UHGV virus genome: UHGV-0137934
Reading direction: 5' to 3' (one strand)
From: a virus
DNA: 53,703 nucleotides
Positions within the stretch are counted from its first letter, which is position 1, and every line of letters begins with the position of its first letter. Made by a program: the position numbers and the translations under genes. The notes under the pieces were generated by a model that was not told the DNA's origin, did not search any database, and saw only the letters and a list, made by a program, of their open reading frames with translations. Shown piece after piece: positions 2,828 through 53,653 of the stretch.

Positions 2828-3379
2828 TCATCCCGTTACTGGCAGATATTTATAGATAGTCTTCACCCCTACACCTATCACATCGGCTATCTGCTGGCGT
2901 GTAGCTCCGTTCTCCAGCATCCGGCGGCCTCGTTCCACAACTTCTTCGGTCATAACCCGGCGGCGGCCACCGATGCGCCCCTGCTCCCTTGCCGCTGCTA
3001 AACCGGCGCGGGTACGCTCGACGATCAACTCTCTTTCCATTTCCGCCAGTGCACTCATGACGTGGAAGAAAAAACGTCCTGCTGGCGTACTGGTATCGAT
3101 GCTGTCAGTCAGGCTTCGGAAATTCACCCCGCGCGCCTGCAGCTCTGATACCAGAGTGATCAGGTCACGCACGCTTCGCCCCAGCCGATCCAGTTTCCAG
3201 ACCACCAGCACATCACCCGGTCGCAGCCGCCGCAGCGCACGCTTTAGCCCTGGTCTCCGGGCATTCTTTCCGCTGGCCGTATCTTCGAAAACCAGCTCAC
3301 ATTCTGCGCGGATCAGCGCATTTTTCTGTAAATCGAGGTTTTGATCCCCGGTTGACACCCTGGCATAACCAATCAGCAT
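2828..3379 (-). CDS. serine recombinase, Hin/Gin/Pin/Cin-family DNA invertase
   Basis: 183 aa; N-terminal MLIGYARVSTGDQNLDLQ catalytic-serine motif, C-terminal HTH; adjacent to tail-fibre genes as in Mu Gin and P1 Cin. Confidence 0.9.
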   Translation of the reverse strand: MLIGYARVSTGDQNLDLQKNALIRAECELVFEDTASGKNARRPGLKRALRRLRPGDVLVVWKLDRLGRSVRDLITLVSELQARGVNFRSLTDSIDTSTPAGRFFFHVMSALAEMERELIVERTRAGLAAAREQGRIGGRRRVMTEEVVERGRRMLENGATRQQIADVIGVGVKTIYKYLPVTG

Positions 3380-24166: not shown

Positions 24167-25903
24167 TCACACAATGATGGGATTACTGAAAAAGTCGTCG
24201 ATATCGCCAGAATCATCCTCATAGCCTTCGGAGGCACCGATTGCCATAGCGCCCGCTACAATGCCGTCGATACGCCCGGTACTTTTTTTCTTGGCAAAAA
24301 TTCGGTTTTCTTTCTGATCAGCCTCCGTCACTGCTGAAGCCGCATTCCAGCGAAGACAAGGGTTCGTCCTGATGATAATGACGCTGTCATCAAGCAACTC
24401 TTCAAACAATTCGATGGAGTGAGGCATCCACAGCCCGGAATCTTTCGCTTTGTAATACCCTTGCCCATGAGGGATTAAGGGAACAGAAACAGATGCTTCC
24501 TCAAGCTCCGGCTCAAGATATTTAATGCGATACTGGTCGAAGGCGATGGCCTTGATATCAAACTTTTGAGTCAGATCTGCAATGCGCTGGGCAACAAAGC
24601 CGTATTTCACTGCTTTGCCAGGTGTGGTGTGTATGTGACCATCGCGCTCCCAGGCGTCATAAGGTACCCTGTCCGTTTTGGCCCGTTCCAGTAACGTATC
24701 TTTCGGGGTCCAGAACTCCACCAGCAACTTACGTTGTTTTGGAAAAAACAACGCCAGTGCCGTCAAATCACGCGATCCGGACAGGTCCAGACCGCCATAG
24801 CATTCCTCACCTTCCAGTTCATCTGGATCAAAGCTCTCCTCACAACTCATCCAGACATCACTGCTCATCCATGGATTAGCCGCGTCAACCCACTGACAGA
24901 AGTTAAGACGTCTGACGATGCTCTCTTTCGATGGCATCCCGCGGGCCTGAGTCACCTGCTCACGAAGATAGCTTTCTTCAAAGGTGTGACCCAGCGAAGG
25001 GTTAGCTTTCTTCCAGCAGGACTCATCCTTGAAAGGATCGTCTCCTTCATCCAGAGAACAAATGAAGGCGAAAAAGCTGTCATCTTCTATCGAACCGGCA
25101 GAAACCTTTCGGCCGTATTCGTGATAGTCATAGCAGACGCTCGTTTTATCGTGCCCACTGTTGGTGATCATGAAAATCAGCGCCTGCCGACGACCTTTGG
25201 TACCGGCACGCATCATTTCAACAACCTGATTGCTTTTATGCTCGTGAACTTCATCAATAAGAGCGCAATGTGGTCGCGGGCCGGACTGCCCGTCATCTGA
25301 ACTGATTGGACGAAAGAAGGAACCAGACTGAAGAAAAGCCAGGTTCCATTCCTTCCCGGCACCACCTGATTTCTGAATACGTGCGGAAAGAGCTGGAGAT
25401 TGATCAACCATCGCCACCGCATCACGGAAAAGGACCATTGCCTGGTCTTTCTTCGTGGCAGCGGCATAAACTTCAGCGCGTGCCTCTTTATCCGCAGTGA
25501 GACAGTAAAGCCCTATACCCGCAGACAGAGGGGATTTCCCGGATCCCTTCCCGGACTCCACGTAAACCATTCGGAACCGGCGAAAACCTCTGGCGTTTTT
25601 CCAGCCAAAAATAGATCCAACGATGAAGCACTGCCAGGGCAGTAACACGAAAGGCTCGCCTTCGAAATCACCACCATTGAGCTTCAGAACTTTAGCAAAA
25701 TAGTCAATCGAGCGTTGCGCCGCCTCAACATCCCAGTGCAGACCACGGGCATGACATGACTGCAGATCGTTGAGGTGGCGCTGGCATGAGTTACGTATGT
25801 CAGGACCAGCCAGTTCTTTGCCCGAGGTTACATCCATCGCATATTGGGTTGCTGGATCAACCGAAGAACTTGTCGAGCGTGTCCTCTTCGGGGTCTTCGC
25901 CAT
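24167..25903 (-). CDS. terminase large subunit
   Basis: 578 aa; Walker A-like GKGSGKS motif; nuclease C-terminal region. Confidence 0.9.
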   Translation of the reverse strand: MAKTPKRTRSTSSSVDPATQYAMDVTSGKELAGPDIRNSCQRHLNDLQSCHARGLHWDVEAAQRSIDYFAKVLKLNGGDFEGEPFVLLPWQCFIVGSIFGWKNARGFRRFRMVYVESGKGSGKSPLSAGIGLYCLTADKEARAEVYAAATKKDQAMVLFRDAVAMVDQSPALSARIQKSGGAGKEWNLAFLQSGSFFRPISSDDGQSGPRPHCALIDEVHEHKSNQVVEMMRAGTKGRRQALIFMITNSGHDKTSVCYDYHEYGRKVSAGSIEDDSFFAFICSLDEGDDPFKDESCWKKANPSLGHTFEESYLREQVTQARGMPSKESIVRRLNFCQWVDAANPWMSSDVWMSCEESFDPDELEGEECYGGLDLSGSRDLTALALFFPKQRKLLVEFWTPKDTLLERAKTDRVPYDAWERDGHIHTTPGKAVKYGFVAQRIADLTQKFDIKAIAFDQYRIKYLEPELEEASVSVPLIPHGQGYYKAKDSGLWMPHSIELFEELLDDSVIIIRTNPCLRWNAASAVTEADQKENRIFAKKKSTGRIDGIVAGAMAIGASEGYEDDSGDIDDFFSNPIIV

Positions 25904-28134: not shown

Positions 28135-28311
28135 TTACTTCTTAACGCTGTCCGGCATTACCGCACCAACCACGCCAGCCAGCGCCACACCGCCAGCGAT
28201 GACGGTTTCCTGAATGCCCGGAGGCATCTGGTAGCCAAATACGCCAGCAATGACCAAGATGATGCCGCGCCAGGTTGACGGCTCTTTCAGTCGATTAATG
28301 AGATAGTTCAT
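28135..28311 (-). CDS. small membrane protein translationally coupled to endolysin (lysis accessory?)
   Basis: 58 aa from ATG overlapping endolysin stop (ATGA); two hydrophobic segments. Confidence 0.45.
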   Translation of the reverse strand: MNYLINRLKEPSTWRGIILVIAGVFGYQMPPGIQETVIAGGVALAGVVGAVMPDSVKK

Positions 28312-28850
28312 AGTTCCACTCTTTCCTTTACCCAACCATAGAGAAAATCTTCATTTGCCGCCCGAGCTTCAGCAAGCTCAAGATAGCGAGCGCCCTGGCT
28401 ACAATTCAGCCCCTTCAGCAGCGTGGTTTCACCATCTTTGCCACGAACAGCGAGATAACTTTTCAGGGCGGCGATGGTGATGTTGCCGATTGCACCGTCC
28501 GGATTCAGATCCGGATATAGCTTGCCCTGCATATTCAGAGCTGATAACCAGCGCTGTAGGAATGTACTGGCGACACGTGGCCCCATGTTCACGCCGGTAT
28601 CACACAATTCCTGTGCAATGGCTGGCGACAACTCGGCGATGCGGTCGAACTTCGGTTCAGTCCAGTATTGCGACAGATAAATGGCTTTGGCTGTATCCCG
28701 TGGTAACGCCTTCATATCGCCGCTATAGCCATACGCGCGGGCAGTAGTCTGAGTGATACCCCAGCGCGTAGGGCCGCCTTTATCATTCGGGTTATTTACG
28801 TAACCCCCTTCTTTACCGAGAATGCCCTCGATAATCTGATCTGCTGTCAT
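28308..28850 (-). CDS. endolysin, GH108-type with peptidoglycan-binding C-terminal region
   Basis: 180 aa; N-terminal ILGKEGGYVNNPNDKGGPTRWGITQ motif. Confidence 0.8.
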   Translation of the reverse strand: MTADQIIEGILGKEGGYVNNPNDKGGPTRWGITQTTARAYGYSGDMKALPRDTAKAIYLSQYWTEPKFDRIAELSPAIAQELCDTGVNMGPRVASTFLQRWLSALNMQGKLYPDLNPDGAIGNITIAALKSYLAVRGKDGETTLLKGLNCSQGARYLELAEARAANEDFLYGWVKERVEL

Positions 28851-29158
28851 GGCGCCTTAACTCCGGTAATGCGCTCCCAGAAATAGGTCAAAGCAACAGA
28901 ACCCATTGCCCCGCTAATTCCGGAAGTCGCCAGTATCATGTAAATGCTCAGTCCGCTTTCAATGCTCACCAGGCCAGCAATAACGCCGGTAAACCCTGAA
29001 ACCACCATTTGGGCAAGAGCATTGAACAAGCTCCATGTTGCCTTGCTCTGCTTCACATCTATCAGGTAGCGGACAAGTCCACCCCAGCAAGCAATGATCA
29101 GCAGAACCAGCCAGGACATCCCGGCAATGCTCTCTTTGTCTTGCATACGTTTAGCCAT
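28847..29158 (-). CDS. holin
   Basis: 103 aa with about three hydrophobic helices; overlaps endolysin start; GGAGG RBS. Confidence 0.65.
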   Translation of the reverse strand: MAKRMQDKESIAGMSWLVLLIIACWGGLVRYLIDVKQSKATWSLFNALAQMVVSGFTGVIAGLVSIESGLSIYMILATSGISGAMGSVALTYFWERITGVKAP

Positions 29159-29639: not shown

Positions 29640-29762
29640 ATGTCAAATTTACTGATGCTAGCCTTAGCTATAGCTCTTCTTCTTATTGGTATTGGTTTTC
29701 TTGTCTCTTATATAAGAGACAGGAAAAGATATAAAAATACTTTTAAAAATAGGCGTAGATAA
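29640..29762 (+). CDS. small membrane peptide A (40 aa, TM helix plus basic tail RDRKRYKNTFKNRRR)
   Basis: Paralogue of peptide at 31509-31628; shared upstream motif GTTAGGATTTTTC. Confidence 0.4.
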   Translation: MSNLLMLALAIALLLIGIGFLVSYIRDRKRYKNTFKNRRR

Positions 29763-30060
29763 CCACTTACCAGAAATAGAAAGATGTTAGACACATCTTC
29801 TGACCAATAAAATTATAAACCTAAGGGATTTCGACCAAATCATTTTCATAACTTCGCGTTAGCTAACAATTTCTTTGTCTGAACACGCTGCAAATTAAAA
29901 GGCTTAACTAGTTTGCATAGGCTGGAGTGTCGCGATTATTTACAGTGCTTTAGTAAATCGCTATGATTTACGGACTGGGGAGGCCTGAGACTCACCCCAG
30001 TGCCCTTAAAATCTGATTGATGCTTTTGAGGTCCGCTTCCCGAAGTGGACCTTTTTTTGC

Positions 30061-30088
30061 CCAAAGAAAAGGCCCGCCGAAGCGAGCC
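30061..30088 (-). terminator. intrinsic terminator (minus strand)
   Basis: Minus-strand hairpin GGCTCGC-TTCG-GCGGGCC followed by TTTTCTTT. Confidence 0.5.
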
Positions 30089-30119
30089 TGCCACTGCTGT
30101 TTCTTTGTTTGTATTGGTT

Positions 30120-30253
30120 GTGGTGCCGGGTGCCTCCCGGTGAGCTTTTGGGTGACCGACCATAGCTCGCGTTCATTAGCTTCTAACTCTGCTGACGTTA
30201 CCGTGCCACATTGTCTGGTCAGTTCCGCCCCGCCGCACAGGGGGATTCACCAC
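30120..30253. repeat. structured element A (134 nt) with conserved termini GTGGTGCCGGGTGCCTCCCGGTGAGC ... GGGGGATTCACCAC
   Basis: Paralogue of 31142-31253; termini can pair (GTGGTG/CACCAC); internal CCGGG...CCCGG hairpin; ERIC-like end motif. Confidence 0.35.
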
Positions 30254-30324
30254 GCACTTTAATTAACCAACCATTTAGACTCATGTCAATTATTTGTGTT
30301 CTATGCATCAACGTAGATAATCCG

Positions 30325-30971: not shown

Positions 30972-31141
30972 GAAAAAGTTGGCTTTCGAGGAGTAACGAT
31001 AAAGAAAGGTTCCTGATAGTCCGAGCTACCGATTTACCAGAAAAGCATTCCCTTTAATGTCGTTACTGTAATTAACCATAGTCTGCCAAAGAGGATGAGT
31101 AAACCTAACAGGATGTTCAGTTTACTTACTTGCGATTAGAT

Positions 31142-31253
31142 GTGGTGCCGGGTGCCTCCCGGTGAGCATGCCCCAACAGACATCACTCGCGTGGTATTCA
31201 CAGGGCTTTCGCTCTATTAGTTGGACGCCCCTCCGCATAGGGGGATTCACCAC
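31142..31253. repeat. structured element B (112 nt), paralogue of element A
   Basis: Identical 26-nt 5' end and near-identical 3' end to element A; variable middle. Confidence 0.35.
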
Positions 31254-31508
31254 AACAATAGATTAGCCATGCAGCATTCACATAGTCAATACCCTGTAGT
31301 TATAGGGTATATACGCATGCCGACAACTCTTAAATAAGTCAGAACACGATTAATTAATGCATATGAAATCATTACGGTATTAATGATAAAAACTCATACA
31401 AAACAATAAATTTAAAAGGAATTATCCGTTAGGATTTTTCCTACGCCAATCGCAAACTACGTTTTATAAAAACAAGAATGTCCATACTCTTTCCAGAGGT
31501 TAACTCAC

Positions 31509-31628
31509 ATGACAGCCATACTGATGATAGCGTTAGCTGTAGTTCTTCTTTTAGTTGCTGTGGGATTCCTGATTTCTTACATCAAAGAAAGGCGTAGATA
31601 TAAAAACACCTTTAAAAAATGGCACTAG
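31509..31628 (+). CDS. small membrane peptide B (39 aa)
   Basis: MTAILMIALAVVLLLVAVGFLISYIKERRRYKNTFKKWH; AGAGG RBS; paralogue of peptide A. Confidence 0.4.
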   Translation: MTAILMIALAVVLLLVAVGFLISYIKERRRYKNTFKKWH

Positions 31629-31657
31629 CCGATTGTTTGGGCAATCTTCAGGAGGGG

Positions 31658-31807
31658 TTATCCCCTCCGCTTCCATGCTGATAAACGGTTCAAGAAGAAC
31701 GCCAGTATCACGATAATCACCACCATATCCATCAGCATACCAGCCAGTCGCCAGCCTACGAACAGTAGAACACCAAACGGCACCCAGAAACACAGCCTGC
31801 GCAGCAT
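31658..31807 (-). CDS. small two-helix membrane protein (49 aa), coupled to upstream binding-protein gene
   Basis: MLRRLCFWVPFGVLLFVGWRLAGMLMDMVVIIVILAFFLNRLSAWKRRG; ATG 3 nt after stop of 31810..32655; not in ORF track (under 60 aa). Confidence 0.4.
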   Translation of the reverse strand: MLRRLCFWVPFGVLLFVGWRLAGMLMDMVVIIVILAFFLNRLSAWKRRG

Positions 31808-31809
31808 GA

Positions 31810-32655
31810 TTATTTGCCGTTAGTGCCGAGTACACGGCTCAGGTTTTTCAGCAGGACAGTCGATGCCGTTTCCAGCATATCATCACCGGCATCGGTATTT
31901 GCGACCACCAGCGTTTTAGTGCAAGGAACCTTCACCTTTGAATCGCTCAGCCAGCCGGACTCGGTCACCGCCTTTTTCAGCTCGTACACCGGTTTCCCGT
32001 TTGGCAGTTTATCGTCGACGTGCCAGCCGTTCATGTCGATCATCGTCAGGCCGCTGCCTTCCTGATTAACCGCCTCCAGAAACTTATTCGACCGGTCCGG
32101 TGCTGATACCCAGAGGAAGGCGTCATACTCGCCAGTGGTGACTTTCGCCAGAGAGCGCACACCGCCTTTGGCATAGGTCTCGACTTTGGCGTAATCCTTT
32201 TCCAGCCCCTGAAGATATTGCCAGGATGCATACGATCCGCTGGTTGGATCTCCGACTGCGATTTTCACACCAGCCTTTAAATCTCCTTCATCGCTGACCT
32301 TGCCCCCCTTCTTCACTGCAACAAAAACGCATTCATCTGCCAGTTCGCCGATTATGTCCACCTTCTGCGCTTCGTTGCTATGCCGACTGCGCCAGAACTG
32401 GAAAGCATCAGCCTGGGTGAAACCGATCTGGGCAGTACCGCTGGCAACCTTGTCGAGATTGTCCAGAGAGCCTTTACTGGGGATCACCATCGAGCTATAG
32501 CCATACTCACTTAGTGCGCTGGCGAGATTAACGCCATACACCGCGTTATAAGTCAGGCCCTGCTGGCCAGTAGTGATGACGACATCCGCAGCTGCCGCAA
32601 CATTACTCAGGCACAGCGAAGCGACCGCGATGGCGGCCATGATTAACTTTTTCAT
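31810..32655 (-). CDS. secreted periplasmic solute-binding-protein-like protein (TAXI/PhnD-like superfamily)
   Basis: 281 aa from ATG at 32655 with AAGGAAAG RBS; signal peptide MKKLIMAAIAVASLCLSNVAAA; ORF track N-terminal extension is unlikely. Confidence 0.5.
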   Translation of the reverse strand: MKKLIMAAIAVASLCLSNVAAAADVVITTGQQGLTYNAVYGVNLASALSEYGYSSMVIPSKGSLDNLDKVASGTAQIGFTQADAFQFWRSRHSNEAQKVDIIGELADECVFVAVKKGGKVSDEGDLKAGVKIAVGDPTSGSYASWQYLQGLEKDYAKVETYAKGGVRSLAKVTTGEYDAFLWVSAPDRSNKFLEAVNQEGSGLTMIDMNGWHVDDKLPNGKPVYELKKAVTESGWLSDSKVKVPCTKTLVVANTDAGDDMLETASTVLLKNLSRVLGTNGK

Positions 32656-32890
32656 GTGACTTTCCTTTACAGGGGTGAGCCAGTGCCCAGAGGTGATCGC
32701 CCTCAGAGAAGTCACGCGACCATTCTGTGGCTCACCCCTGTTAAGGCTCTGAGGATGATATGCACCGGCACCGGTGCAGAAATGAAAAAGCGCGCGTATG
32801 CGAGCCTTTAATTGTTGCCGCCACGTGGCGACTTTTTCACCAGTCTGATATCGTTGATTTGCCAATAACCATACAGACAAGGGGATTAAT

Positions 32891-33349
32891 GTGTCTGACT
32901 ACCACAACCTGTTACATGTGATTAAATCGCGCGTGTGTGAAAACAGGAGCATGTCGCACTCCGCTTATTATCCGGGCAGCATGCAGGACAATCAGATCAG
33001 AAACAGAACGGCGCTGATTTATGTCCTCGAAATGCTTCTCCATCTGCACAGACTAAAGTATGCCACTATTTTCAATCCGCTTGAGGGGAAAGCTGCGCTG
33101 CACCATCTCATCTTTATGAAAACAAATTGGCGGCCGTCAGTAATCAGAGATCTGAAATTGGAAGATGCTCTTTTTGTTATCCAGGATGAACTGAGGATAG
33201 AGAACATAAGCGACGAAGCTCAGGAGGCTTTAAGCTCATTCAACCTCCCTTCAGTTGCTTTCCTGTTTGAGGATTTTCCAGAAGAGGACTGGAACTATAG
33301 GGAAAACTCAACGTTCCTTCGAAACCTGATGATGAAAGCAACTCAATAG
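32891..33349 (+). CDS. hypothetical protein
   Basis: 152 aa; GTG start with AAGGGGA RBS; 3' end overlaps convergent ORF. Confidence 0.35.
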   Translation: MSDYHNLLHVIKSRVCENRSMSHSAYYPGSMQDNQIRNRTALIYVLEMLLHLHRLKYATIFNPLEGKAALHHLIFMKTNWRPSVIRDLKLEDALFVIQDELRIENISDEAQEALSSFNLPSVAFLFEDFPEEDWNYRENSTFLRNLMMKATQ

Positions 33350-33497
33350 ACTTGTCGATTTCTTTCAGCCGTTCTTCAAGAGCGGCTTTTTCTGCCACCA
33401 GACGATTGAATTGTGCAAGATGGATTTTCTGTTGCCCAAGCCAATCTTCCAGCTGTTGAGTGGTCATACCCGGGTTAAAAAAATATGGTTGCTGCAT
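33240..33497 (-). CDS. hypothetical coiled-coil protein
   Basis: 85 aa from ATG at 33497 with GGGGGA RBS. Confidence 0.4.
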   Translation of the reverse strand: MQQPYFFNPGMTTQQLEDWLGQQKIHLAQFNRLVAEKAALEERLKEIDKSIELLSSSGFEGTLSFPYSSSPLLENPQTGKQLKGG

Positions 33498-33791
33498 ACA
33501 GTCCCCCAAGATATAGATAAGGCCCGCGGATGCGAGCCTTCCAGCACAAAAACATTCACCTATTGGCTTTTACCAAAACCAGCCCCAGTTATCGACGAAC
33601 ACCTGAAGACAGGTAAACGCTATGTTATCAAATAGATACAACCTAATTTCCATGATAAGCCCCTTAAGTTTCGTTCATTGTCTAACCCATAGTAAGAATC
33701 TCATATTCAGTGAGCTCATTCTGGAACTATGGAACTAAAAAGAGCCAATATAGACATTTATTTTAAAAGTTACTTTTTTGAATCTTAGAAA

Positions 33792-34841
33792 CTAACTCAG
33801 CAAACTGCGCATTTCACTGACCGTCTGTTCAAACCGCTCGGTTTCCAGTTCAACGCCGATTCCACTCCGCCCAAGCAGAGCCGCTTGCTTTAGTGTGGAA
33901 CCCGAACCAGCAAAGAAATCAGCTACGACATCCCCTGGCCGACTGCTTGCAGTAATGATCTGCTGGAGCATATCGGCAGGTTTTTCGCATGGGTGCTTAC
34001 CTGGATAAAACTGAACCGGCTTATGTGTCCAGACGTCGGTATATGGCACCGTGACCGACACGCTAAATGGGCGCCGTAACCGGTAAAGCTCCTGCTGAAG
34101 TTCAGAATACTTCCGGTTAAGTGATTGCCAGGTAGCGACAAGCTGGTGGTGAGGTTTTCCCAGTTCGTTGCGTGAGTGCTTATCCATGGCGATTTTTTGA
34201 AACAGAGCCTGCAACTTCAAATAATCGGCTTCATTCGGCAGTTGCCACTGGCTAAGGCCAAACCAGTGGGAAACCATATTTTTTTTACCCGTGGCTTCTG
34301 CAATCTGGGCCGACGTCACGCCAAGAGATTCCCGGGCATCCCGGAAGTAAGAAATTAAAGGCGTCATGATGTGTTGCTTTAACTCATTACACTTTGCGGC
34401 ATATCCATCGTCTTTGGGCCTGTATGGCCCCTGATAATGGTCGGCAAAAATGATACGCTCAGTGGCCGGGAAATAAGCGCGTAAGCTCTCCTTATTGCAG
34501 CCGTTCCATCGCCCTGATGGCTTAGCCCAGATGATATGGTTGAGCAGGTTAAACCGCTCTCTCACCAACAGCTCAATATCCGCTGCCAGGCGGTGCCCAC
34601 AGAACAGATACATGCTGCCGGCAGGTTTTAACACTCGCCAGAACTGTGCCAGACAGCTATCCAGCCAACGTAAATAGTCCTCGTCCCCCTGCCATTGGTT
34701 ATCCCAGCCGTTTGGCTTCACCTTAAAATAAGGCGGATCGGTAACAATAAGATCAATGGAGTTATCGGGTAGTGATGGGAGGTATTGCAGGCAATCAGCA
34801 TTGATTAATTCAACACTGGATATTTTTACAGTATTTTTCAT
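33792..34841 (-). CDS. DNA methyltransferase, N6-adenine/N4-cytosine type (DPPY motif)
   Basis: 349 aa; IVTDPPYF motif; C-terminal SAM-binding FFAGSGST. Confidence 0.8.
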   Translation of the reverse strand: MKNTVKISSVELINADCLQYLPSLPDNSIDLIVTDPPYFKVKPNGWDNQWQGDEDYLRWLDSCLAQFWRVLKPAGSMYLFCGHRLAADIELLVRERFNLLNHIIWAKPSGRWNGCNKESLRAYFPATERIIFADHYQGPYRPKDDGYAAKCNELKQHIMTPLISYFRDARESLGVTSAQIAEATGKKNMVSHWFGLSQWQLPNEADYLKLQALFQKIAMDKHSRNELGKPHHQLVATWQSLNRKYSELQQELYRLRRPFSVSVTVPYTDVWTHKPVQFYPGKHPCEKPADMLQQIITASSRPGDVVADFFAGSGSTLKQAALLGRSGIGVELETERFEQTVSEMRSLLS

Positions 34842-35283: not shown

Positions 35284-35308
35284 ATAAAAAAACCCGCTCG
35301 CTGGCGGG
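35284..35308 (-). terminator. candidate tR'-type intrinsic terminator downstream of Q-like gene
   Basis: Minus-strand hairpin CCCGCC-AGCGA-GCGGG followed by U7. Confidence 0.5.
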
Positions 35309-35348
35309 TTAATCAACGTTGAACATACAAAGCCCATCGTTATAGATA

Positions 35349-35376
35349 AAATTACACAAAAGCGGCAACTTTGCAA
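35349..35376 (-). promoter_or_regulatory. candidate late promoter (P_R'-like): TTGCAA-N16-TAATTT
   Basis: Sigma70-like hexamers on minus strand between Q-like stop and terminator. Confidence 0.3.
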
Positions 35377-35392
35377 GTAACGTGTCGCTAAA

Positions 35393-36223
35393 TTATGCGA
35401 TATTTATGAAATCAGACACCTTTGTCACACGTTTAAGTTGTGAGTCGGTATAACTCTCTTCCTCAAAGCATTTTGTAACCAGACTTTCATAGAAAGGTTT
35501 CCAGCTGTATCGCCAGGTACGTTCTGGCAGACCAGGCAGCTCAGAGAGTATACCTCTGTAAGCATTTGAAGACTTAGGACGACTATAACCGCGACCTTCA
35601 CAACGTTTACATACTTTGTAGACAGGCACTCCCTGCAGCTCTGACTCTTTACGGTCCAGGGTTTTTCCCGTACCGCCACACTGGCATCGCTTGCTGATTT
35701 TCCCGGTGCCGCCGCATTTAAAGCAGAGAACATGGTCAATCTCTTCCACCTGACGTTTTACTTCAAAATCCGAAGGTGACTGCCCGAGGTCTTTTGCCCA
35801 TTGCGGTAATCTCATTTTGTAGTGGCTTTTTTCCACCATTGAGGTTTTTTTTATGAAGCCTGAACCAGAACACTTCCTGCAATCTACGCTGTCAGCTGCA
35901 GACGAGGCATAGTCGTTATAAGCGAACCGAGCTATTATCAGCATACACAGCGGGAACTTCTTCCCTGCTGCTTTTCTTATCGATCGAGGCGCTTTTGATT
36001 TTGCATATTCAGCCAACCAACTGACGGATGCCTTTCTGTCGTGTTCGCTGATTCCAGCTTTACCCAAAAACATTGACAGGCCTATTCCCGCCTCTGCCTG
36101 TGTCATCCCCAGTGCGGCCATTACATCTGTCACAGTGAGTTGCTCGCTGGCGGTTGCACGACCGCTATCGGAAATATGCATTCCTTTGGGCGCGAAAAAT
36201 TTGGGAATTGATTCAATATTCAT
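35393..36223 (-). CDS. Q-like late antiterminator (zinc-finger type)
   Basis: About 276 aa; CxxC...CxxC motifs; position upstream of late promoter/terminator. Confidence 0.5.
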   Translation of the reverse strand: MNIESIPKFFAPKGMHISDSGRATASEQLTVTDVMAALGMTQAEAGIGLSMFLGKAGISEHDRKASVSWLAEYAKSKAPRSIRKAAGKKFPLCMLIIARFAYNDYASSAADSVDCRKCSGSGFIKKTSMVEKSHYKMRLPQWAKDLGQSPSDFEVKRQVEEIDHVLCFKCGGTGKISKRCQCGGTGKTLDRKESELQGVPVYKVCKRCEGRGYSRPKSSNAYRGILSELPGLPERTWRYSWKPFYESLVTKCFEEESYTDSQLKRVTKVSDFINIA

Positions 36224-36241
36224 GCTCAGTACTCCATACAC

Positions 36242-38636: not shown

Positions 38637-39109
38637 TCTGCCTCCAGCACTATCTTCAACTCAAACGGAACATCTCCTCCGCAATAGCAGAGCGGGCCAA
38701 GGTCAGACATAAGGCTCCACAGGGTCATTGACGTATAGCCATTTTCGTCTGTTACCGGGGGCGAAAAGTCCCCGAAGATCCCCGGGTGCTGGATTCGATT
38801 CTGCTCGTGTTGTTTTTCCAAATGTCTGAGGGAGACTTCATTGAGTTTCACTTTTACGATGCTGTTGAGATTGACCGATATTTCTCTGGCCAGCAGCGCA
38901 GGGGTGATACTGATACCGCGAGAAACCCCGCGGCTGATTGTGATAACACCCTTTTTCTCTAACGCCTTGAGGTGCGTTGCTGCTGCATTGGGGGACCGGC
39001 ACCCCAGCATGCCGGTCAGTTCGTAAGTTGTAGGCGGAAAACCATGTTTACGCTGATATTCGATCAGGAGGTCAAGGACCTCCTGCTGCCTTAAGGTCAA
39101 GGAAGTCAT
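38633..39109 (-). CDS. LexA-type winged-HTH DNA-binding domain protein lacking S24 peptidase domain
   Basis: About 158 aa; N-terminus LTLRQQEVLDLL ... GFPPTTYEL ... NAAATHLKALEKKGVI matches LexA DNA-binding domain; C-terminus unrelated to LexA. Confidence 0.6.
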   Translation of the reverse strand: MTSLTLRQQEVLDLLIEYQRKHGFPPTTYELTGMLGCRSPNAAATHLKALEKKGVITISRGVSRGISITPALLAREISVNLNSIVKVKLNEVSLRHLEKQHEQNRIQHPGIFGDFSPPVTDENGYTSMTLWSLMSDLGPLCYCGGDVPFELKIVLEAE

Positions 39110-41193
39110 GCTGCCTGCTCCTCTCTGTTCACGCACATTTCGGGTAAGTTAGCGCGTACCAGCGCTTCGGCGAACGGCGGCGGGACGGCATTGCCACAGC
39201 GCGCGACCTGCTTATCTTTCGCGTATTTCACGCCGCGGTAATCCTGGTCAATGATGTACCACTCGGGGAAGCCCTGCGCCCGGTAAAGTTCGTGTGGCTG
39301 CAGCATGCGCATGCCGATATCAACGATGCGGTAAGTCACTCCGTCGATTTCCACCAGCCCGGTGCATTCCTCTCCGCAGTATTCCTGCAGGAACGACAGT
39401 ACCTGCTGCGCTCGCTCTTCATCATAGTCCTCTGCCGCCAGAGTCGTTTTAACCTCCCCTACGTGCTGGCCACCGGCAGTGATAGTCGGCATCGGCTCGT
39501 CAGTAGGCTGGCCGTCACGGCAAGTACCGCGGAGCTTGACCAGATGAGACGTAACCATTGCGGCATCAGCCTTTGTCGTCATGGTTTGCAGTGGCTCGCT
39601 AACGTCACGTGGCCTGCTCTGCCCAGCGCGACCGCCGACACCAACAACCTGAGCAGTAACCAGCGCATGATGATCGACAGTAGTAACTGAGTGAGTAGGT
39701 TCGTCCAGGTCAATACCGGCGCCCTGGTAGTTCCCTCCGTAGTGTTTTGCCAGAAACGCACCAACTACGGCATGTTTCCCGCCACCAGCCACAACGGTGC
39801 CCAGCGGCTTATCCATACCTGGCACGCGAGGTGCCTGTCCTGGCCGTTCCCCGTATCCCGTTTGAATGAGCGTCGGCACAACCAGCTGCGATTTACCGCC
39901 ACCGCCCGCGGTGATTGTTGCGCTAGGCTCATCCGCACGGTGTCCGATGCTGGCGCCGAACTGCCGGGCGATAACCGGAGCGACGACACAGGCGCGCGAT
40001 TCTTTCAGGATGGTGTGAGCGGGTTTATCGAGCGGGCGTGGTTTAGCCTGGTACTCGCTGCCGCCATTGCCATCCAGGAACGGAGCCAGCTCTGCTTCAA
40101 CAATACCCATAGCGTGACCATTCCCGCCCGGGCGTTTTGCGGTACCGGCCGTCACCGTCGGCAACGGATCGGTGACTTCCTGACCGGTAGCTCCGGTTCG
40201 GAATTTTGTCAGATGAGGTACCGCAATTGCGTAGCCGTGGGTTTTCGTAATCGTCTGTAGCGGATCGTCCAGCGCCTGTCCCCGGAAACAGTCGTATTTA
40301 CCGCGTGTCGTTGTGTGATTGCACTTCACGATGAACGGCGAAGCGCTTTCGATAACAAAGCGCTGAATGCCGCGGGCAATCCGTTTTAGCGTATTCTCTG
40401 CCAGTGACTTTTTGCGACCGAAGATGCTCGGCGCGGGGATTGACCAGTCTATGCATTCCGCTGCTGTACGCCACGGCTCCAGCTGGCCCGCCAGCACGGC
40501 GGCAGACTTCGGATCCCCGTGCGTGGCTTCCGGCCAGACTATCGGTTTCCCGTCCCGGCGCATCACCATGAAGAACCGCTTACGGATGGTCGGCGCACCA
40601 TAATCGCAGGCGCGCAGCTCGCGAAAATCGACGACATAACCCAGCCCGGCAATTAAGCGCTTGGCCTGCTCGCTATCCGGTGAAAACTCCAGAAACTCGC
40701 AACACTCCACCAGTGCAGGATGATCTGCTGGAATACCGGTGGTAAGCATCCCGACAAATGCATTGAAAGTTTCACCGATGCGTGCCGGATCCGGTCGCAT
40801 TTCTGCCGCGAGTAACGGGCCCCACGTTTTAAACTCTTCGACGTTTTCCAGCATCATGACTCGCGGGCCAACATCCAGCGCCCAACGAATGACGATCCAT
40901 GCCAGCCCTCGAATAGTTTTCTCTACTGGTTTAGCACCTTTCGCTTTAGAAAAGTGACGACAGTCAGGCGAGAACCATGCCAGGCCGACAGGCTTGCCAC
41001 TGGTAGCGGCTAATGGGGATACATCAAACACACTTTCGCAATAGTGAAGCGTGTCGGGATGGTTAGTGCGGTGCATAGCAACGGCGTTAACATCGTGGTT
41101 AATCGCGATATCAACGCTACGCCCTATCGCCAGCTCAATACCTGTACTGGCACCACCGCCACCAGCAAAATTATCGACAATAATCTCACGCAT
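39106..41193 (-). CDS. DNA (cytosine-5) methyltransferase, long form with repeated target-recognition-like segments (probably multispecific)
   Basis: 695 aa; motif I FAGGGG, motif IV SPDCRHFSKAKG, motif VI ENV, C-terminal CGNAVPPP; central region with repeated P.xTITAGG-type segments. Confidence 0.8.
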   Translation of the reverse strand: MREIIVDNFAGGGGASTGIELAIGRSVDIAINHDVNAVAMHRTNHPDTLHYCESVFDVSPLAATSGKPVGLAWFSPDCRHFSKAKGAKPVEKTIRGLAWIVIRWALDVGPRVMMLENVEEFKTWGPLLAAEMRPDPARIGETFNAFVGMLTTGIPADHPALVECCEFLEFSPDSEQAKRLIAGLGYVVDFRELRACDYGAPTIRKRFFMVMRRDGKPIVWPEATHGDPKSAAVLAGQLEPWRTAAECIDWSIPAPSIFGRKKSLAENTLKRIARGIQRFVIESASPFIVKCNHTTTRGKYDCFRGQALDDPLQTITKTHGYAIAVPHLTKFRTGATGQEVTDPLPTVTAGTAKRPGGNGHAMGIVEAELAPFLDGNGGSEYQAKPRPLDKPAHTILKESRACVVAPVIARQFGASIGHRADEPSATITAGGGGKSQLVVPTLIQTGYGERPGQAPRVPGMDKPLGTVVAGGGKHAVVGAFLAKHYGGNYQGAGIDLDEPTHSVTTVDHHALVTAQVVGVGGRAGQSRPRDVSEPLQTMTTKADAAMVTSHLVKLRGTCRDGQPTDEPMPTITAGGQHVGEVKTTLAAEDYDEERAQQVLSFLQEYCGEECTGLVEIDGVTYRIVDIGMRMLQPHELYRAQGFPEWYIIDQDYRGVKYAKDKQVARCGNAVPPPFAEALVRANLPEMCVNREEQAA

Positions 41194-44909: not shown

Positions 44910-45584
44910 ATGAAAACAATCCAGGAAATCAGGCGGTTAAACGCCAGAAAATTGCGTGATGGTGTTGGCGGTAATATTTACTTCGCCAATATGATTGATC
45001 GCGAGCCGACTCAAACCAGCCGGTTCATGGGAGATGGCGCCACTAAAAACATCGGCGATGCAATGGCAAGGCACATTGAAAAGTGTTTTGACTTACCTAC
45101 TGGGTGGTTAGATCAGGAACATCAAACCACTAATGTTGCTAAAACTCCCGATGTCTCTGATACAAATAGAAATATCACCATGGTTCCGGTTATATCCTGG
45201 GTACAAGCAGGAGCATGGACCGAAGTTGGCTATGCTGAGGTTGATTTGAATAGCACTGAAAACTATCCATGCCCTGTTCCTTGTGGGCCGATGACTTATA
45301 TTCTTCGTGTTATTGGCGACTCAATGATCGACGAATATAGGCCCGGTGATATGATTTTTGTTGATCCCGAAGTTCCAGCAGTACATGGAGATGATGTGAT
45401 CGCCTTAATGCACGATTCTGGTGAGACTACATTTAAACGGTTGATTGAAGATGCAGGACAACGCTATCTAAAAGCACTTAACTCAAACTGGCCAGAACCT
45501 TACATCAAAATCAATGGTAATTGCTCTATCATTGGTACCATAATTTTTTCCGGTAAACCAAGACGATACCGAACGAAAACATAA
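44910..45584 (+). CDS. CI-type repressor (HTH plus S24 LexA-like peptidase)
   Basis: 224 aa; C-terminal VIGDSM ... ETTFKRL motif of S24 autoproteases. Confidence 0.85.
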   Translation: MKTIQEIRRLNARKLRDGVGGNIYFANMIDREPTQTSRFMGDGATKNIGDAMARHIEKCFDLPTGWLDQEHQTTNVAKTPDVSDTNRNITMVPVISWVQAGAWTEVGYAEVDLNSTENYPCPVPCGPMTYILRVIGDSMIDEYRPGDMIFVDPEVPAVHGDDVIALMHDSGETTFKRLIEDAGQRYLKALNSNWPEPYIKINGNCSIIGTIIFSGKPRRYRTKT

Positions 45585-49225: not shown

Positions 49226-50006
49226 AAACTCGATCGATGCTTATGGCGCCAGCGGCAAGACAAACGTTCTGATGTTCGAGCCGGAAAATCTGCATATTGT
49301 CACTGACAAGGCTCACCCGCTTTACGATGAACGTATTCACTTACCTCTCAGTGAAGCCATGGTGCTGAACATCATAGACCAGGGTGTTCTGGAGCCGATT
49401 ATTGTCTGGAAAGACCCGGAAACTGGGTACTCCTGCGTGGTTGATGGCCGTCAGCGTGTCCGTCATACCCTGGAGGCTAACAGACGCCTGGCCAAAGAGG
49501 GTAAAACTCCGCTACTGGTTCCGGCTGTCACTAAACGCGGTTCTGCTGTTCGCATGGCTCAGGCAATGGTCAGCGCAAACGAAATCCGCCAGGCCGACAC
49601 ACCGCTGGGCAGGGCCAAAAAGATGGCTGATGCGCTGGAGCGCGGGCATGACGAGGAAGACCTAGCGCTGATGTTCGGCGTCAGTGTCCCCACTGTACGC
49701 GCTACGCTATCCCTTCTGGATGCCACTCAGGCAGTCAAAGACGCGGTAGAGTCCGGCGCAGTGACCGTTACCCAGGCACGGCAACTGGCATCACTGAAAC
49801 CCGAAGAACAGCGGGAAAAGGTAGCCGAAATCGAAGCGGCGACCGCTGGCACTACCGGTCATGAAAAAGCGCGTCGTCAGCGCCAGGTCCTCGGCGATAA
49901 GAAACCGCGCCTTAAAACTCGCAAAGAAATCACAAAAGCCCTCGAAGCTGCCAACGGTGAATACGCTGATGCTCTGCGCTGGGTACTTGGGGAGGTAACA
50001 TTATGA
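49218..50006 (+). CDS. ParB/Srx-fold (ParB N-terminal domain-like) protein
   Basis: 262 aa; VLEPIIVWKDPETGYSCVVDGRQRVRH matches ParB-N/sulfiredoxin arginine finger region. Confidence 0.6.
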   Translation: MAKNSIDAYGASGKTNVLMFEPENLHIVTDKAHPLYDERIHLPLSEAMVLNIIDQGVLEPIIVWKDPETGYSCVVDGRQRVRHTLEANRRLAKEGKTPLLVPAVTKRGSAVRMAQAMVSANEIRQADTPLGRAKKMADALERGHDEEDLALMFGVSVPTVRATLSLLDATQAVKDAVESGAVTVTQARQLASLKPEEQREKVAEIEAATAGTTGHEKARRQRQVLGDKKPRLKTRKEITKALEAANGEYADALRWVLGEVTL

Positions 50007-51082
50007 GTAAAGTAGGAGATCATTTCTTTGAGTTTCCTGCATCACGTGGAACTCAGGGCGGTTCAATTGTCCTGATGCTAACTGTTCCTGCACGGACCCT
50101 TACGCGAGTTCTCGCCAGCGATAATTACGGGGACACTCTTGAACGCTCGCAGCGAGAACTGAACCCAGCCAGGGCGAAAAAGTTTTATCAGTATCTTGTT
50201 GAAGCATACGAAAACAAAGAGCCATTTATCATTCCACCGCTGGTAGGTAACTGCGATTCGTATGTTGAATTCGAAGAGTTCGGAAACACTAATGTCGGGG
50301 TGGCCCGATTCCCGATGGACGCAGAGATTAAATTGTTTGATGGTCAGCATCGCGCAGCAGGTATTGCGGAATATTGTCGCACCATTGATGAACCGATCCA
50401 TGTCCCGATGATGCTTACTCTCCAGTTGCCACTGAAGACACGGCAGCAGTTTTTCTCCGACATTAACAACAATGTTTCGAAACCTTCTGCGGCTATCAAT
50501 ATGGCCTATAACGGTCGTGATAAGAACGCGCAGGAGATGGTTAGTTTTATCAGTTCACACAGCGTATTTTCTGAAGTCACCGATTTTGAGCATAACGTCG
50601 TTCCCGCGAAAAGTGATAAGTGGGTGAGCTTCAAAGCCCTTAGTGATGCTACTGCAAAATTTTCCGGTTCATGTTCACAAGATGACCTTGAGGGGTTGTG
50701 GAATGCCTGGCTGATGCTGACTGGTTTAGATGATATTCGCCGAGGTACGAACCAGGTCGAGTACAAACGCGAGTATATCCAGTTCCATGCTGTGATGATT
50801 AACGCCTTTGGCTACGCCGTGCAGAGGTTAAGCGAAGGTCGGGGAGTTCGCGGGGTCACGCTGATGATTGAGGACTTGGTAATGAATACCGGCATTGCCG
50901 AACGTGAAGATTTCTTCCTCCTTTCATCATGGGATGGTATTTGCGCCAGCTGCGAGAAAACAAGGCCAACGGTCATTGCGAATGTCTCATCTCAGAAAGC
51001 TGCAGCATCACGCCTGATGGATGCCATCGCGAATAAAAACTTGTCTGTCAGTAGCGGTAAGGAATCAGCCAATGACCAATAA
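50003..51082 (+). CDS. DGQHR-domain protein (DndB-like)
   Basis: 359 aa; exact DGQHR motif at residues 113-117 (nt 50339-50353); ATGA overlap with upstream ParB-like gene. Confidence 0.65.
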   Translation: MSKVGDHFFEFPASRGTQGGSIVLMLTVPARTLTRVLASDNYGDTLERSQRELNPARAKKFYQYLVEAYENKEPFIIPPLVGNCDSYVEFEEFGNTNVGVARFPMDAEIKLFDGQHRAAGIAEYCRTIDEPIHVPMMLTLQLPLKTRQQFFSDINNNVSKPSAAINMAYNGRDKNAQEMVSFISSHSVFSEVTDFEHNVVPAKSDKWVSFKALSDATAKFSGSCSQDDLEGLWNAWLMLTGLDDIRRGTNQVEYKREYIQFHAVMINAFGYAVQRLSEGRGVRGVTLMIEDLVMNTGIAEREDFFLLSSWDGICASCEKTRPTVIANVSSQKAAASRLMDAIANKNLSVSSGKESANDQ

Positions 51083-52278: not shown

Positions 52279-52515
52279 ATGTCACGTATGGTCTCTTTAC
52301 TCGAATGGGCGAAAGATGAATTCGGTAGTGAAGCCCCTAGCGAGCGTGTATTAAAAAAATACGCTAAAGGTCAAATGATAGCGCCGCCACCGATGCGAGT
52401 TGGACGGCGCTGGATGGTTGACAGAGAAGCTCGTTTTATAGGTGTCGTTGCTGAACCTCAACTTCCAATAAATGTAAACCCAAAATTGAGACGGATAATT
52501 AACGATGGCAGCTAG
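52279..52515 (+). CDS. xis: excisionase (Xis-like)
   Basis: 78 aa from ATG 52279 (GGAGA RBS); overlaps int start; lambda Xis-like pattern. Confidence 0.65.
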   Translation: MSRMVSLLEWAKDEFGSEAPSERVLKKYAKGQMIAPPPMRVGRRWMVDREARFIGVVAEPQLPINVNPKLRRIINDGS

Positions 52516-53653
52516 ACCGCGCACTCATAAAATCTCTATCCCAAACCTGTATTGCAAGCTTGATAAACGCACCGGTAAGGTTTACTGGCAATACAAACAC
52601 CCTATTTCTGGGCGTTTTCATAGCCTCGGCACAGATGAAGCTGAGGCAAAGCAGGTGGCAAGTGAAGCAAACACGATCATTGCAGAGCAGCGAACCAGGC
52701 AGATCCTTAGTATTAACGAGCGTCTGTCGCGTATGAAAGGAAACCGCGCGGACATTACAGTGACAGCATGGCTTGATAAATATGAATCCGTGCAGGAGGA
52801 AAGGTTGAAACACAACGAACTTCGACCAAATTCTTTTAGGCAAAAAGCTAAACCTATCCGGCTTTTTCGTGAGCATTGCGGCATGCAATATCTGAAAGAC
52901 ATTTCAGCACTAGATATTTCTGAAATAACAGATGCGGTTAAGGCTGAGGGTCATAATAGAATGGCTCAAATTGTTCGCATGGTATTAATTGATGTATTTA
53001 AAGAGGCACAGCATGCTGGACATGTTCCGCCAGGTTATAACCCTGCCCAGGCTACTAAGCAACCTCGAAACAAAATTACTAGACAACGTTTATCACTGGA
53101 GGAATGGAAGACTATTTATGAATGCGCTGAGCATCAACAGCCATATTTGCAGTGCGGAATGCTACTCGCAATAGTAACCGGCCAGCGCATAGGTGATATT
53201 TGTAATATGAAATTCACAGATATTTGGGATGATATGTTACATATTGTGCAGGAAAAAACAGGTTCTCGCCTTGCCATTCCGCTCTCACTAAGAAATGAAG
53301 TACTAGATATTTCGCTACGAGATGTTGTTTCAAAATGTAGAGATGCGGTGGTTAGTAAATATCTGGTCCACTTCAGACATACCACCTCTCAGGCTAACCG
53401 TGGTGATCAAGTATCCACGAAAACTCTGACTTCTACATTTAAAAAAGCTCGGGACAAAAGTTGTCTTGCATGGGATGAAGGAAGCGCCCCAACCTTCCAC
53501 GAACAGAGATCTCTTTCAGAACGGTTATACCGCGAGCAGGGCCTAGATACTCAGAAGTTACTGGGCCACAAATCGAAAAAAATGACGGATAAATACAACG
53601 ATGACCGGGGTAAAGACTGGCTCGTTGTAGGTCAGAAAGCAATACGATTTTAA
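52505..53653 (+). CDS. int: tyrosine integrase, lambda Int family
   Basis: 382 aa; closely resembles remembered lambda Int (LAIVTGQRIGD, PTFHE.RSLS.RLY, LLGHKS..M...Y). Confidence 0.9.
   Translation: MAARPRTHKISIPNLYCKLDKRTGKVYWQYKHPISGRFHSLGTDEAEAKQVASEANTIIAEQRTRQILSINERLSRMKGNRADITVTAWLDKYESVQEERLKHNELRPNSFRQKAKPIRLFREHCGMQYLKDISALDISEITDAVKAEGHNRMAQIVRMVLIDVFKEAQHAGHVPPGYNPAQATKQPRNKITRQRLSLEEWKTIYECAEHQQPYLQCGMLLAIVTGQRIGDICNMKFTDIWDDMLHIVQEKTGSRLAIPLSLRNEVLDISLRDVVSKCRDAVVSKYLVHFRHTTSQANRGDQVSTKTLTSTFKKARDKSCLAWDEGSAPTFHEQRSLSERLYREQGLDTQKLLGHKSKKMTDKYNDDRGKDWLVVGQKAIRF

Follow-up and report, generated by a model that had tools for sequence, protein, structure and literature searches.

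The window, a 53,703-nt stretch of viral DNA (UHGV virus genome UHGV-0137934), carries a compact cassette between the antiterminator gene Q and the lysis genes of a prophage. The cassette is made up of a structured 5' leader RNA, a gene for a TAXI-type solute-binding protein (SBP) of 281 amino acids (aa), and a 49-aa hydrophobic open reading frame (ORF) that is coupled to the SBP stop codon. The SBP is a very divergent TAXI protein and is not PhnD-like. We tentatively read the SBP and its mini-membrane partner as a transporter-independent, Tci-like envelope module, possibly one for superinfection exclusion, and hold this reading with slightly less than even confidence. The identity and architecture of the cassette are far more secure than its proposed role. 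Coordinates of all main features are collected in Table 1.

By inspection, the N-terminus of the SBP (MKKLIMAAIAVASLCLSNVAAAA/D) shows the n, h, and c regions expected of a signal peptide, spanning approximately residues 1-23, with an A-x-A cleavage motif near residue 22-23, and a similar N-terminus was seen in 39 of 39 aligned relatives. A lipoprotein was ruled out, given that a lipobox is absent and that the Cys of the signal peptide is not conserved. The binding fold was then classified using profile hidden Markov models (HMMs). Pfam PF16868 (NMT1_3) scored 42 bits against a cut-off of 27, and NCBIfam TIGR02122 (TRAP_TAXI) matched the SBP from end to end with 68.5 bits, which is under its curated cut-off of 84.35. 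An AlphaFold model built on 39 homologues gave a two-lobe fold with a predicted local distance difference test (pLDDT) score of 90.8. The top seven PDB matches to this model in Foldseek were all TAXI structures (4DDD, VcGluP 9IBO/8S4J, VCA0144, and TtGluBP 8U79/1US4), with E-values of 8e-16 to 5e-14 and template modeling (TM) scores of 0.63-0.72; non-TAXI SBP classes appeared at E ≥ 1.8e-9, PhnD-type structures among them at approximately 2e-8. A profile of the SBP family matched the same solved TAXI chains (2e-10 to 7e-9), and identity between the SBP and characterized cellular TAXIs was approximately 17%. The first-pass annotation of this DNA had described an exported binding protein that was, with low certainty, TAXI- or PhnD-like. 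Export and the TAXI assignment were borne out, and the PhnD half of the description was not, as PF12974 (Phosphonate-bd), the model for a PhnD or ABC-type SBP, matched only part of the SBP with 23.1 bits (cut-off 27) and the corresponding fold matches were far weaker than those to TAXI. As a separate observation, three giant proteins in the representative library (P0162, 1137 aa; P0255, 1063 aa; P0197, 2478 aa) bear three to four tandem SBP domains.

The SBP gene is under strong purifying selection, with a ratio of nonsynonymous to synonymous substitution rates (dN/dS) of 0.02-0.08 against 20 homologues, and nearly all of the approximately 120 homologue clusters found encode proteins of 275-285 aa with intact signal peptides. 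This selection and the uniform cluster lengths led to the rejection of a pseudogene or host fragment, a possibility that the first-pass annotation had raised in the form of a broken host transporter gene. An exhaustive profile search returned 153 clusters (50% identity level) at E ≤ 1e-30 and graded into ordinary TAXIs (4569 at E ≤ 1e-3). The gene was detected in 47 sequenced phages using tblastn, and 73 SBP loci were recovered by scanning IMG/VR. It occurs in virulent jumbo phages as well as in temperate phages, lambdoid prophages included. Copies in jumbo phages range from 65% to 76% identity, with 75% in Klebsiella jumbo phages of approximately 300 kb and 65-72% in Erwinia and Salmonella jumbo phages of approximately 240 kb; the copy in Pseudaeromonas phage KLEP7 is 50% identical, and weaker matches were found in alphaproteobacterial phages. 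Relatives at 38% and 59% identity likewise lie on phage-like contigs. Among the relatives whose context was examined, nearly all members of this SBP clade are phage-borne. The single clearly chromosomal, non-phage context was a Marinobacterium contig (51% identity); a scan of genome contigs gave only two SBP loci, and the host-side distribution is thinly sampled.

In order to locate possible transporter partners, the window and 89 related loci were scanned for ORFs that are 150 aa or longer and contain five or more hydrophobic segments. No TRAP permease or polytopic membrane ORF was found near any phage copy in these 90 sources, the annotated contexts agreed, and the absence of permease or ATPase partners that had been claimed for the window was upheld and, for the permease, extended to its relatives. 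The exceptions were one distant ORF and the chromosomal Marinobacterium locus (L005 2200-6879), where the SBP gene is directly downstream of genes for a half-transporter of the ABC exporter type and for a membrane protein of 651 aa without a Pfam match; these could form a cellular partner system for the SBP clade. Some phage copies are already named "TAXI/TRAP solute receptor" or "immunogenic protein" in GenBank. The searchable literature yielded annotation-level mentions of phage TAXI proteins and no functional study, and no description of the partner protein, the Tci link, or the leader RNA was found there.

The SBP gene ends in TAA (31812-31810), which is followed by TC and then by the ATG of the 49-aa ORF (31807), confirming the start three nucleotides after the stop that had been reported. 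Because small ORFs are rarely called by gene callers, a word-indexed protein search returned only two clusters for the 49-aa protein, and ORFs were therefore read directly from the DNA of more than 70 loci. A hydrophobic ORF of 49-54 aa was found to abut the SBP stop codon in every temperate-type locus and in the Klebsiella jumbo phages. The junction takes the forms TAAtcATG, ATGA, TAATG, TAGATG, and TAAgttATG, stop-start coupling is kept in all of them, and the adjacency spans SBP identities of 46-99% and two gene orders. The mini-protein has a dN/dS of 0.2-0.6 while dS exceeds 1, with both frame and length preserved, and the small ORF is thus conserved in homologues, a point on which the first-pass annotation had left room for doubt. 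Neither the SBP gene nor this ORF is a chance reading frame. The ends of the mini-protein are basic, and its central residues R20, G23, L25, and D27 are invariant within the motif W/F-R-x-A/T-G-x-L-x-D. The protein belongs to no Pfam, NCBIfam, PHROG (E ≤ 10), or PADLOC family, and a tblastn search of phages with this short, hydrophobic query gave no match. From its hydropathy and the way its charges are distributed, an N-in/C-in hairpin is predicted. The C-terminal third of the window copy differs from that of its relatives: it reads ...FFLNRLSAWKRRG where the relatives have ...VVCRYWPFKRKS, and the W-P-x-K motif is absent from it; the adjacent SBP is 96-99% identical to the same relatives, and against L014 the dN is 0.24 for the mini-protein and 0.008 for the SBP.

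A second arrangement was found in Erwinia-type jumbo phages, in which the downstream ORF is absent and a hydrophobic ORF of 55-61 aa lies directly upstream of the SBP gene, as it also does in L075 and L077. The product of this upstream ORF is built like the 49-aa protein: its N-terminus is basic, two hydrophobic stretches follow with a basic residue between them, and the tail is basic and often contains W-P-x-x-K. It matched phrog_1470 ("TciB-like", 4e-19), and the gene preceding it matched TciA/TerB (phrog_632, 4e-57), placing tciA, tciB, and the SBP gene in one operon in the Erwinia jumbo phages. An HMM of the 49-aa family was run against all flanking ORFs and did not reach the Erwinia upstream ORFs. 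In phage P1, tciA (TerB-like), tciB (54 aa), and tciC (35 aa) lie among tRNA genes, and their function is annotated only by homology. The lambdoid phage JLK-2012 has the order Q, three tRNAs, leader, tciA, and an overlapping tciB, with a holin further downstream, and an E. coli prophage has the order Q-like gene, tRNA-Thr, SBP, 49-aa ORF, small membrane protein, and holins. From these two gene orders it follows that one slot is filled by tciAB in the first case and by the SBP with its 49-aa partner in the second. The TerB-domain protein (phrog_632) is missing from the window cassette and the SBP stands in its place; TciA accompanies the SBP only in the Erwinia jumbo-phage version. The link between the 49-aa family and TciB rests on architecture, position, and a common leader, and homology is not demonstrable.

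Glutamate is held in VcGluP by Y45, S75, Q93, E125, G156, and Y200/M201 (PMC11574862), and these residues align to Y36, S63, Q81, E108, G140, and W182/V183 of the SBP. The first five of the SBP residues are invariant in the 39-sequence alignment, in which identity falls as low as 33%, whereas across TAXIs the Y45 equivalent is found in only 78% and the Q93 equivalent in only 54%. The retention of pocket residues that are not universal among TAXIs suggests that the ligand is an amino acid or a carboxylate; glutamate itself is not proven. C109 and C245 are also invariant in this alignment and are located on the two long inter-lobe strands of the AlphaFold model; a disulfide between them is likely.

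The stretch of approximately 135 nt that precedes the SBP start, with an intrinsic terminator always before it, is conserved also in loci whose sequences further upstream have nothing in common. Five sequence types of this leader independently fold alike, into a small hairpin followed by a long helix P1 that encloses P2. The base of P1 is prolonged by the pairing of CCUU with the AAGG of the Shine-Dalgarno (SD) sequence, and the eight bases 5' of this anti-SD pair with the P2 loop to form a pseudoknot. The window leader has a minimum free energy of -65 kcal/mol (z = -6.3). In an alignment of 14 leaders, 91.6% of cells were paired, compared to 34-54% for slid partners, and the pseudoknot and SD helices were 100% paired with compensatory changes (CG/UA; GC/UA/AU). 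Twelve different pseudoknot 7-mers were present among 37 distinct leader copies, with the complement kept in each, and the mean pseudoknot helix was 7.2 bp versus 4.8 bp for swapped partners and 4.4 bp for shuffled loops. That the RNA is on the coding strand is indicated by its G-U pairs and by a score six times higher for the sense strand. The upstream boundary of the cassette is a terminator-like hairpin, and other phages place an unrelated intrinsic terminator at this site, directly before the leader. In the minimum-energy fold, the U-run of the terminator together with CAU (CUUUUUCAU) pairs perfectly with the SBP start-codon region (AUGAAAAAG), a modeled pairing that is a possible second block on initiation and is not conserved across all leader types.

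A covariance model built from SBP leaders scored 145 bits on the window leader and 99.5 bits on the leader of JLK-2012 tciA; it also found leaders before other genes in the same phages and before tciA in the Erwinia jumbo phages. Leader matches in sequenced phages (blastn) comprised 16 records, all covering most of the leader, and in the three that were checked (Kp4871-1, Fostie, and Evi) a tciA homologue begins 1-2 nt after the end of the match. A strict sequence pattern was found on at least 120 IMG/VR contigs, and the gene that follows was tail-fibre-J-like (54), TciA (26), a "moron"-class glycosyltransferase (13), the SBP (6), phrog_10235 (6), or, in single or few cases, a Rha/Ant-like regulator and others. 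Copies are also located at L090 2864-3003, L003 1088-1221, L040 9408-9545, L049 9853-9975, and L052 9521-9643; the IMG/VR contigs with the pattern are those from L091 onward. A search of Rfam 15 returned no family at the gathering threshold, only chance microRNA-like matches (E 0.4-9). The leader is a candidate for a new class of cis-regulatory RNA, and it may broadly gate the translation of phage accessory cassettes. A riboswitch specific to the SBP substrate is unlikely, given that the leader precedes approximately 15 unrelated gene families.

A plausible promoter and a strong terminator directly after Q form the classic PR'/tR' arrangement. The cassette is located 2.6 kb downstream of this pair, on the same strand and behind its own terminator, and no convincing sigma-70 promoter was found before the leader, also on inspection. 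Given the Q-adjacent promoter and terminator and the lack of a sigma-70 promoter of its own, Q-dependent late expression is the simplest reading, and we infer that the cassette belongs to a Q-dependent late transcription unit. Such late expression would disfavor the "lysogenic-conversion island" in which the first-pass annotation had placed the pair; the locking of the SD in an RNA helix and the presence of the same gene in virulent jumbo phages also count against that label.

Taken together, the reading that we favor would run as follows. The cassette would be transcribed with the late genes via Q antitermination, and the leader, placed after a terminator, would keep the SD in a helix, such that translation would be off by default. 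Its products would be an exported, disulfide-bearing, highly divergent TAXI-fold protein, with a pocket like an amino-acid/glutamate pocket, and an inner-membrane mini-protein of approximately 50 aa co-translated with it. The SBP would feed no TRAP or ABC transporter; it would act together with the mini-protein on the periplasmic side of the inner membrane, where we infer that the two interact physically. Judged by the common genomic slot, operon layout, and leader RNA, the cassette would count as a version of the phage Tci module (TciA/TerB and TciB). Its most likely role would be the ligand-dependent guarding or alteration of the envelope of the infected cell, such as the exclusion of superinfecting phages or of colicin-like agents. 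Of the roles that the first-pass annotation had suggested (receptor mask, superinfection exclusion, or sensor), exclusion gains indirect support, from the genetic tie to the TciA(TerB)/TciB module and from a published proposal that superinfection is blocked by Ter components of phages (PMC7824862). A TAXI SBP can operate with a non-TRAP membrane partner (PMC12344293).

Several observations weigh against this reading. Alignment of the 49-aa family to TciB gave an hhalign probability of 3.7%, and no match to phrog_1470 was found at E ≤ 10. The leader also precedes unrelated genes, and a common leader is therefore weaker evidence of common function than a common slot. The two-helix topology that had been proposed for the 49-aa protein agrees with the hydropathy and positive-inside prediction, but the AlphaFold model, made from a single sequence, draws one helix over residues 3-48 and no hairpin. 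The partner is absent beside two SBP copies, the one in Pseudaeromonas phage KLEP7 and the chromosomal one in Marinobacterium. A simple receptor mask would not need an invariant small-molecule pocket. No likeness to a known exclusion protein was found, with zero PADLOC matches for the SBP and the 49-aa protein, and the PHROG family of the SBP, phrog_6856, is labeled "unknown function". Finally, the assignment to a late transcription unit has a sequence-only basis.

A more far-reaching reading, which is considered unlikely, is a transporter-independent periplasmic metabolite receptor carried by phages of several unrelated types. The SBP and mini-protein, together with the cytoplasmic TerB-domain protein in some phages, would sense an amino acid or organic acid in the periplasm, relay this through the inner membrane, and thereby set an infection decision such as exclusion, envelope remodeling, or lysis timing. 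The receptor would be switched on through the pseudoknotted leader class, which would gate the translation of many phage accessory ("moron") cassettes.

An auxiliary metabolic gene is rather unlikely. The SBP would here hand an amino or organic acid to a host transporter (TAXI-TRAP QM, GltS-type, or other) and boost the nutrient supply during infection, much as cyanophage PstS does with phosphate, for which the intact and invariant ligand-contact residues, the strong purifying selection on the SBP, the presence of the gene in lytic and temperate phages, and the pairing of TAXI SBPs with different membrane partners (PMC12344293) all speak. However, identity to characterized cellular TAXIs is approximately 17% and the relatives examined for context are nearly all phage-borne rather than host orthologues, which makes it unlikely that a host permease offers a fitting docking surface. 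E. coli K-12 is not known to have a TAXI-TRAP system. Nutrient uptake would also leave the mini-membrane partner and the TciA/TciB link unexplained, and the probable late expression, shortly before lysis, would leave little time for nutritional gain.

We consider it quite unlikely that the SBP serves in ligand sequestration, as a decoy that soaks up a periplasmic metabolite or signal and blinds a host sensor or transporter, or as a "public good" after lysis, with the small ORF as an unrelated or stabilizing neighbor. The conserved pocket, the absence of the partner in some relatives, and the fast evolution of that partner (dN/dS up to 0.6) would fit such a role, but the partner is kept beside the SBP in both gene orders and over SBP identities of 46-99%, and stop-start coupling is preserved in several sequence forms.

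Control of lysis timing, in which the SBP and mini-protein would modulate the holin on a periplasmic signal in an antiholin or RI-like manner, is improbable. The cassette is located just upstream of holin/endolysin genes in temperate phages, genes for a membrane protein and an M15 peptidase come next after the 38%-identical relative, and the mini-protein is holin-like in being small and hydrophobic with a charged C-terminus. Against this, the jumbo-phage gene sits in tRNA clusters away from lysis genes, approximately 2.5 kb with two small RNA (sRNA) genes and ORFs separates the cassette from the holin in the window, and no similarity to known antiholins or holins was found. A decaying, functionless remnant of a host transporter operon is scarcely credible, as the absence of a permease is all that favors it and it is refuted by the dN/dS, uniform length, and intact signal peptides of the SBP, by its 153 clusters at E ≤ 1e-30, and by its spread over unrelated phage types.

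Table 1. Features of the SBP cassette and of the surrounding prophage in the window
Feature	Position	Strand	Basis or remark
TAXI-type SBP gene, 281 aa, phrog_6856	31810..32655	(-)	sequence, Pfam, structure model, selection
49-aa hydrophobic mini-protein, MLRR...WRLAGMLMD...KRRG	31658..31807	(-)	ORF reading, homologues, selection
Structured 5' leader RNA	32656..32784	(-)	folding, covariance, conservation
Leader hp0	32777-32762	(-)	
Leader pseudoknot 5' strand, CCUCAGAG	32754-32747	(-)	
Leader anti-SD, CCUU	32746-32743	(-)	
Leader P1	32738-32728 with 32682-32672	(-)	
Leader pseudoknot 3' strand, CUCUGAGG, in the loop of P2	32708-32701	(-)	P2 lies inside P1
SD sequence, AAGG	32667-32664	(-)	paired to anti-SD
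Terminator-like hairpin and T-run, GGCTCGC-ATAC-GCGCGC-TTTTT	32785..32806	(-)	read from sequence; slightly degraded in the window
Putative late promoter TTGCAA-N17-TAATTT and strong terminator AACCCGC-CAGCGA-GCGGGTT-T7	35285..35380	(-)	directly downstream of Q; promoter by eye
GC-rich hairpin, GGAGGGG-TTAT-CCCCTCC	31651..31668		read from sequence; no strand
Lambda-type integrase	52505-53653		
S24 repressor	44910-45584		
Antiterminator Q	35393-36241		Pfam Antiterm 8e-46
Holin	28847-29158		
Endolysin	28308-28850		
Large terminase	24167-25903		

The window was confirmed as a lambdoid prophage, and the description of the pair as prophage cargo was upheld, by the joint presence of a lambda-type integrase, an S24 repressor, Q, holin/endolysin genes, and a terminase. 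Zero tRNA genes were found in the window. The GC-rich hairpin takes in the stop codon of the mini-protein gene and separates that gene from a convergent small-membrane-protein gene; no U-run follows it on either strand. The gap between cassette and holin holds, among other ORFs, two copies of the sRNA STnc100 (30059-30282 (-) and 31099-31282 (-); 97 and 70 bits). Two KPN_two_small genes, which encode single-pass membrane proteins of 39-40 aa with 73% identity, were located at 29640-29762 (+) and 31509-31628 (+). Each is divergent from one STnc100 copy, an arrangement that resembles type I toxin-antitoxin pairs, and one is convergent with the 49-aa ORF. A small-membrane-protein gene with an identical NCBI product name is present at the equivalent site of the E. 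coli prophage.

Other neighboring genes were also noted. An ECs1072-family gene and a phrog_3501 ORF overlap on opposite strands (32891-33349 (+) and 33240-33509 (-)). Further prophage cargo includes an N6/N4 DNA methylase (33792-34841 (-)), a 695-aa C5 cytosine methylase (39106-41193 (-)), and, near the integrase, a DndB-like gene (50003-51082 (+)). At its far end, the window carries a UmuC/ImpB-type translesion polymerase gene (653-1918 (-)) and a serine resolvase or invertase gene (2828-3379 (-)), both of which may add to the accessory gene content of the prophage.

The purpose of SBPs is assumed to be the feeding of transporters. Here, strong selection acts on a largely phage-borne TAXI clade that lacks a permease, keeps a mini-membrane partner, and is genetically linked to the Tci/TerB module. 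The cassette offers a testable handle both on the role of phage-encoded binding proteins and on that of the tci genes of P1 and lambdoid phages. If the leader is a general translational gate, this would also bear on how the expression timing of prophage cargo, virulence-type morons included, is predicted.

In comparison to known systems, the phage SBP shares with the SBPs of TAXI TRAP transporters (VcGluP/VC0430 and TtGluBP/TTHA1157; 8S4J, 9IBO, and 1US4) a two-lobe fold, export, and the ligand Tyr/Ser/Gln/Glu/Gly set, but it is approximately 20-40 residues shorter, has no fused Q-M permease nearby, and carries its own invariant Cys pair (C109/C245) where VcGluP has intradomain disulfides. Cyanophage PstS is a phage-encoded phosphate-binding protein with a close host orthologue, and it uses the host PstCAB. 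It is likewise a periplasmic SBP carried by phages without transporter genes of their own; the phage TAXI clade differs in being far from characterized cellular TAXIs and in having its own membrane mini-partner. In T4 Imm/Sp and similar superinfection-exclusion pairs, a periplasmic protein and a small inner-membrane protein of the resident phage act without a small-molecule pocket; the SBP pair is like them in logic and has no sequence or fold relationship to them. The TAXI-GltS system of Bordetella pertussis (BP0403) also combines a TAXI SBP with a different membrane partner and has no TRAP component in the operon (PMC12344293). In that system, however, a dimeric SBP with an extra N-terminal domain works with a full transporter of the GltS type (PMC12344293), whereas the only partner of the phage SBP is approximately 50 aa long and cannot be a carrier alone. 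The tciA-tciB(-tciC) cassette of P1 and lambdoid phages differs from the SBP cassette in that its soluble component is a cytoplasmic TerB domain and not a periplasmic SBP, and the 49-aa protein is without significant similarity to TciB; the two cassettes are alike in their slot (Q, tRNAs, cassette, holin), in their leader RNA, and in the succession of a soluble protein and a translationally coupled hydrophobic protein of approximately 50 aa with basic ends.

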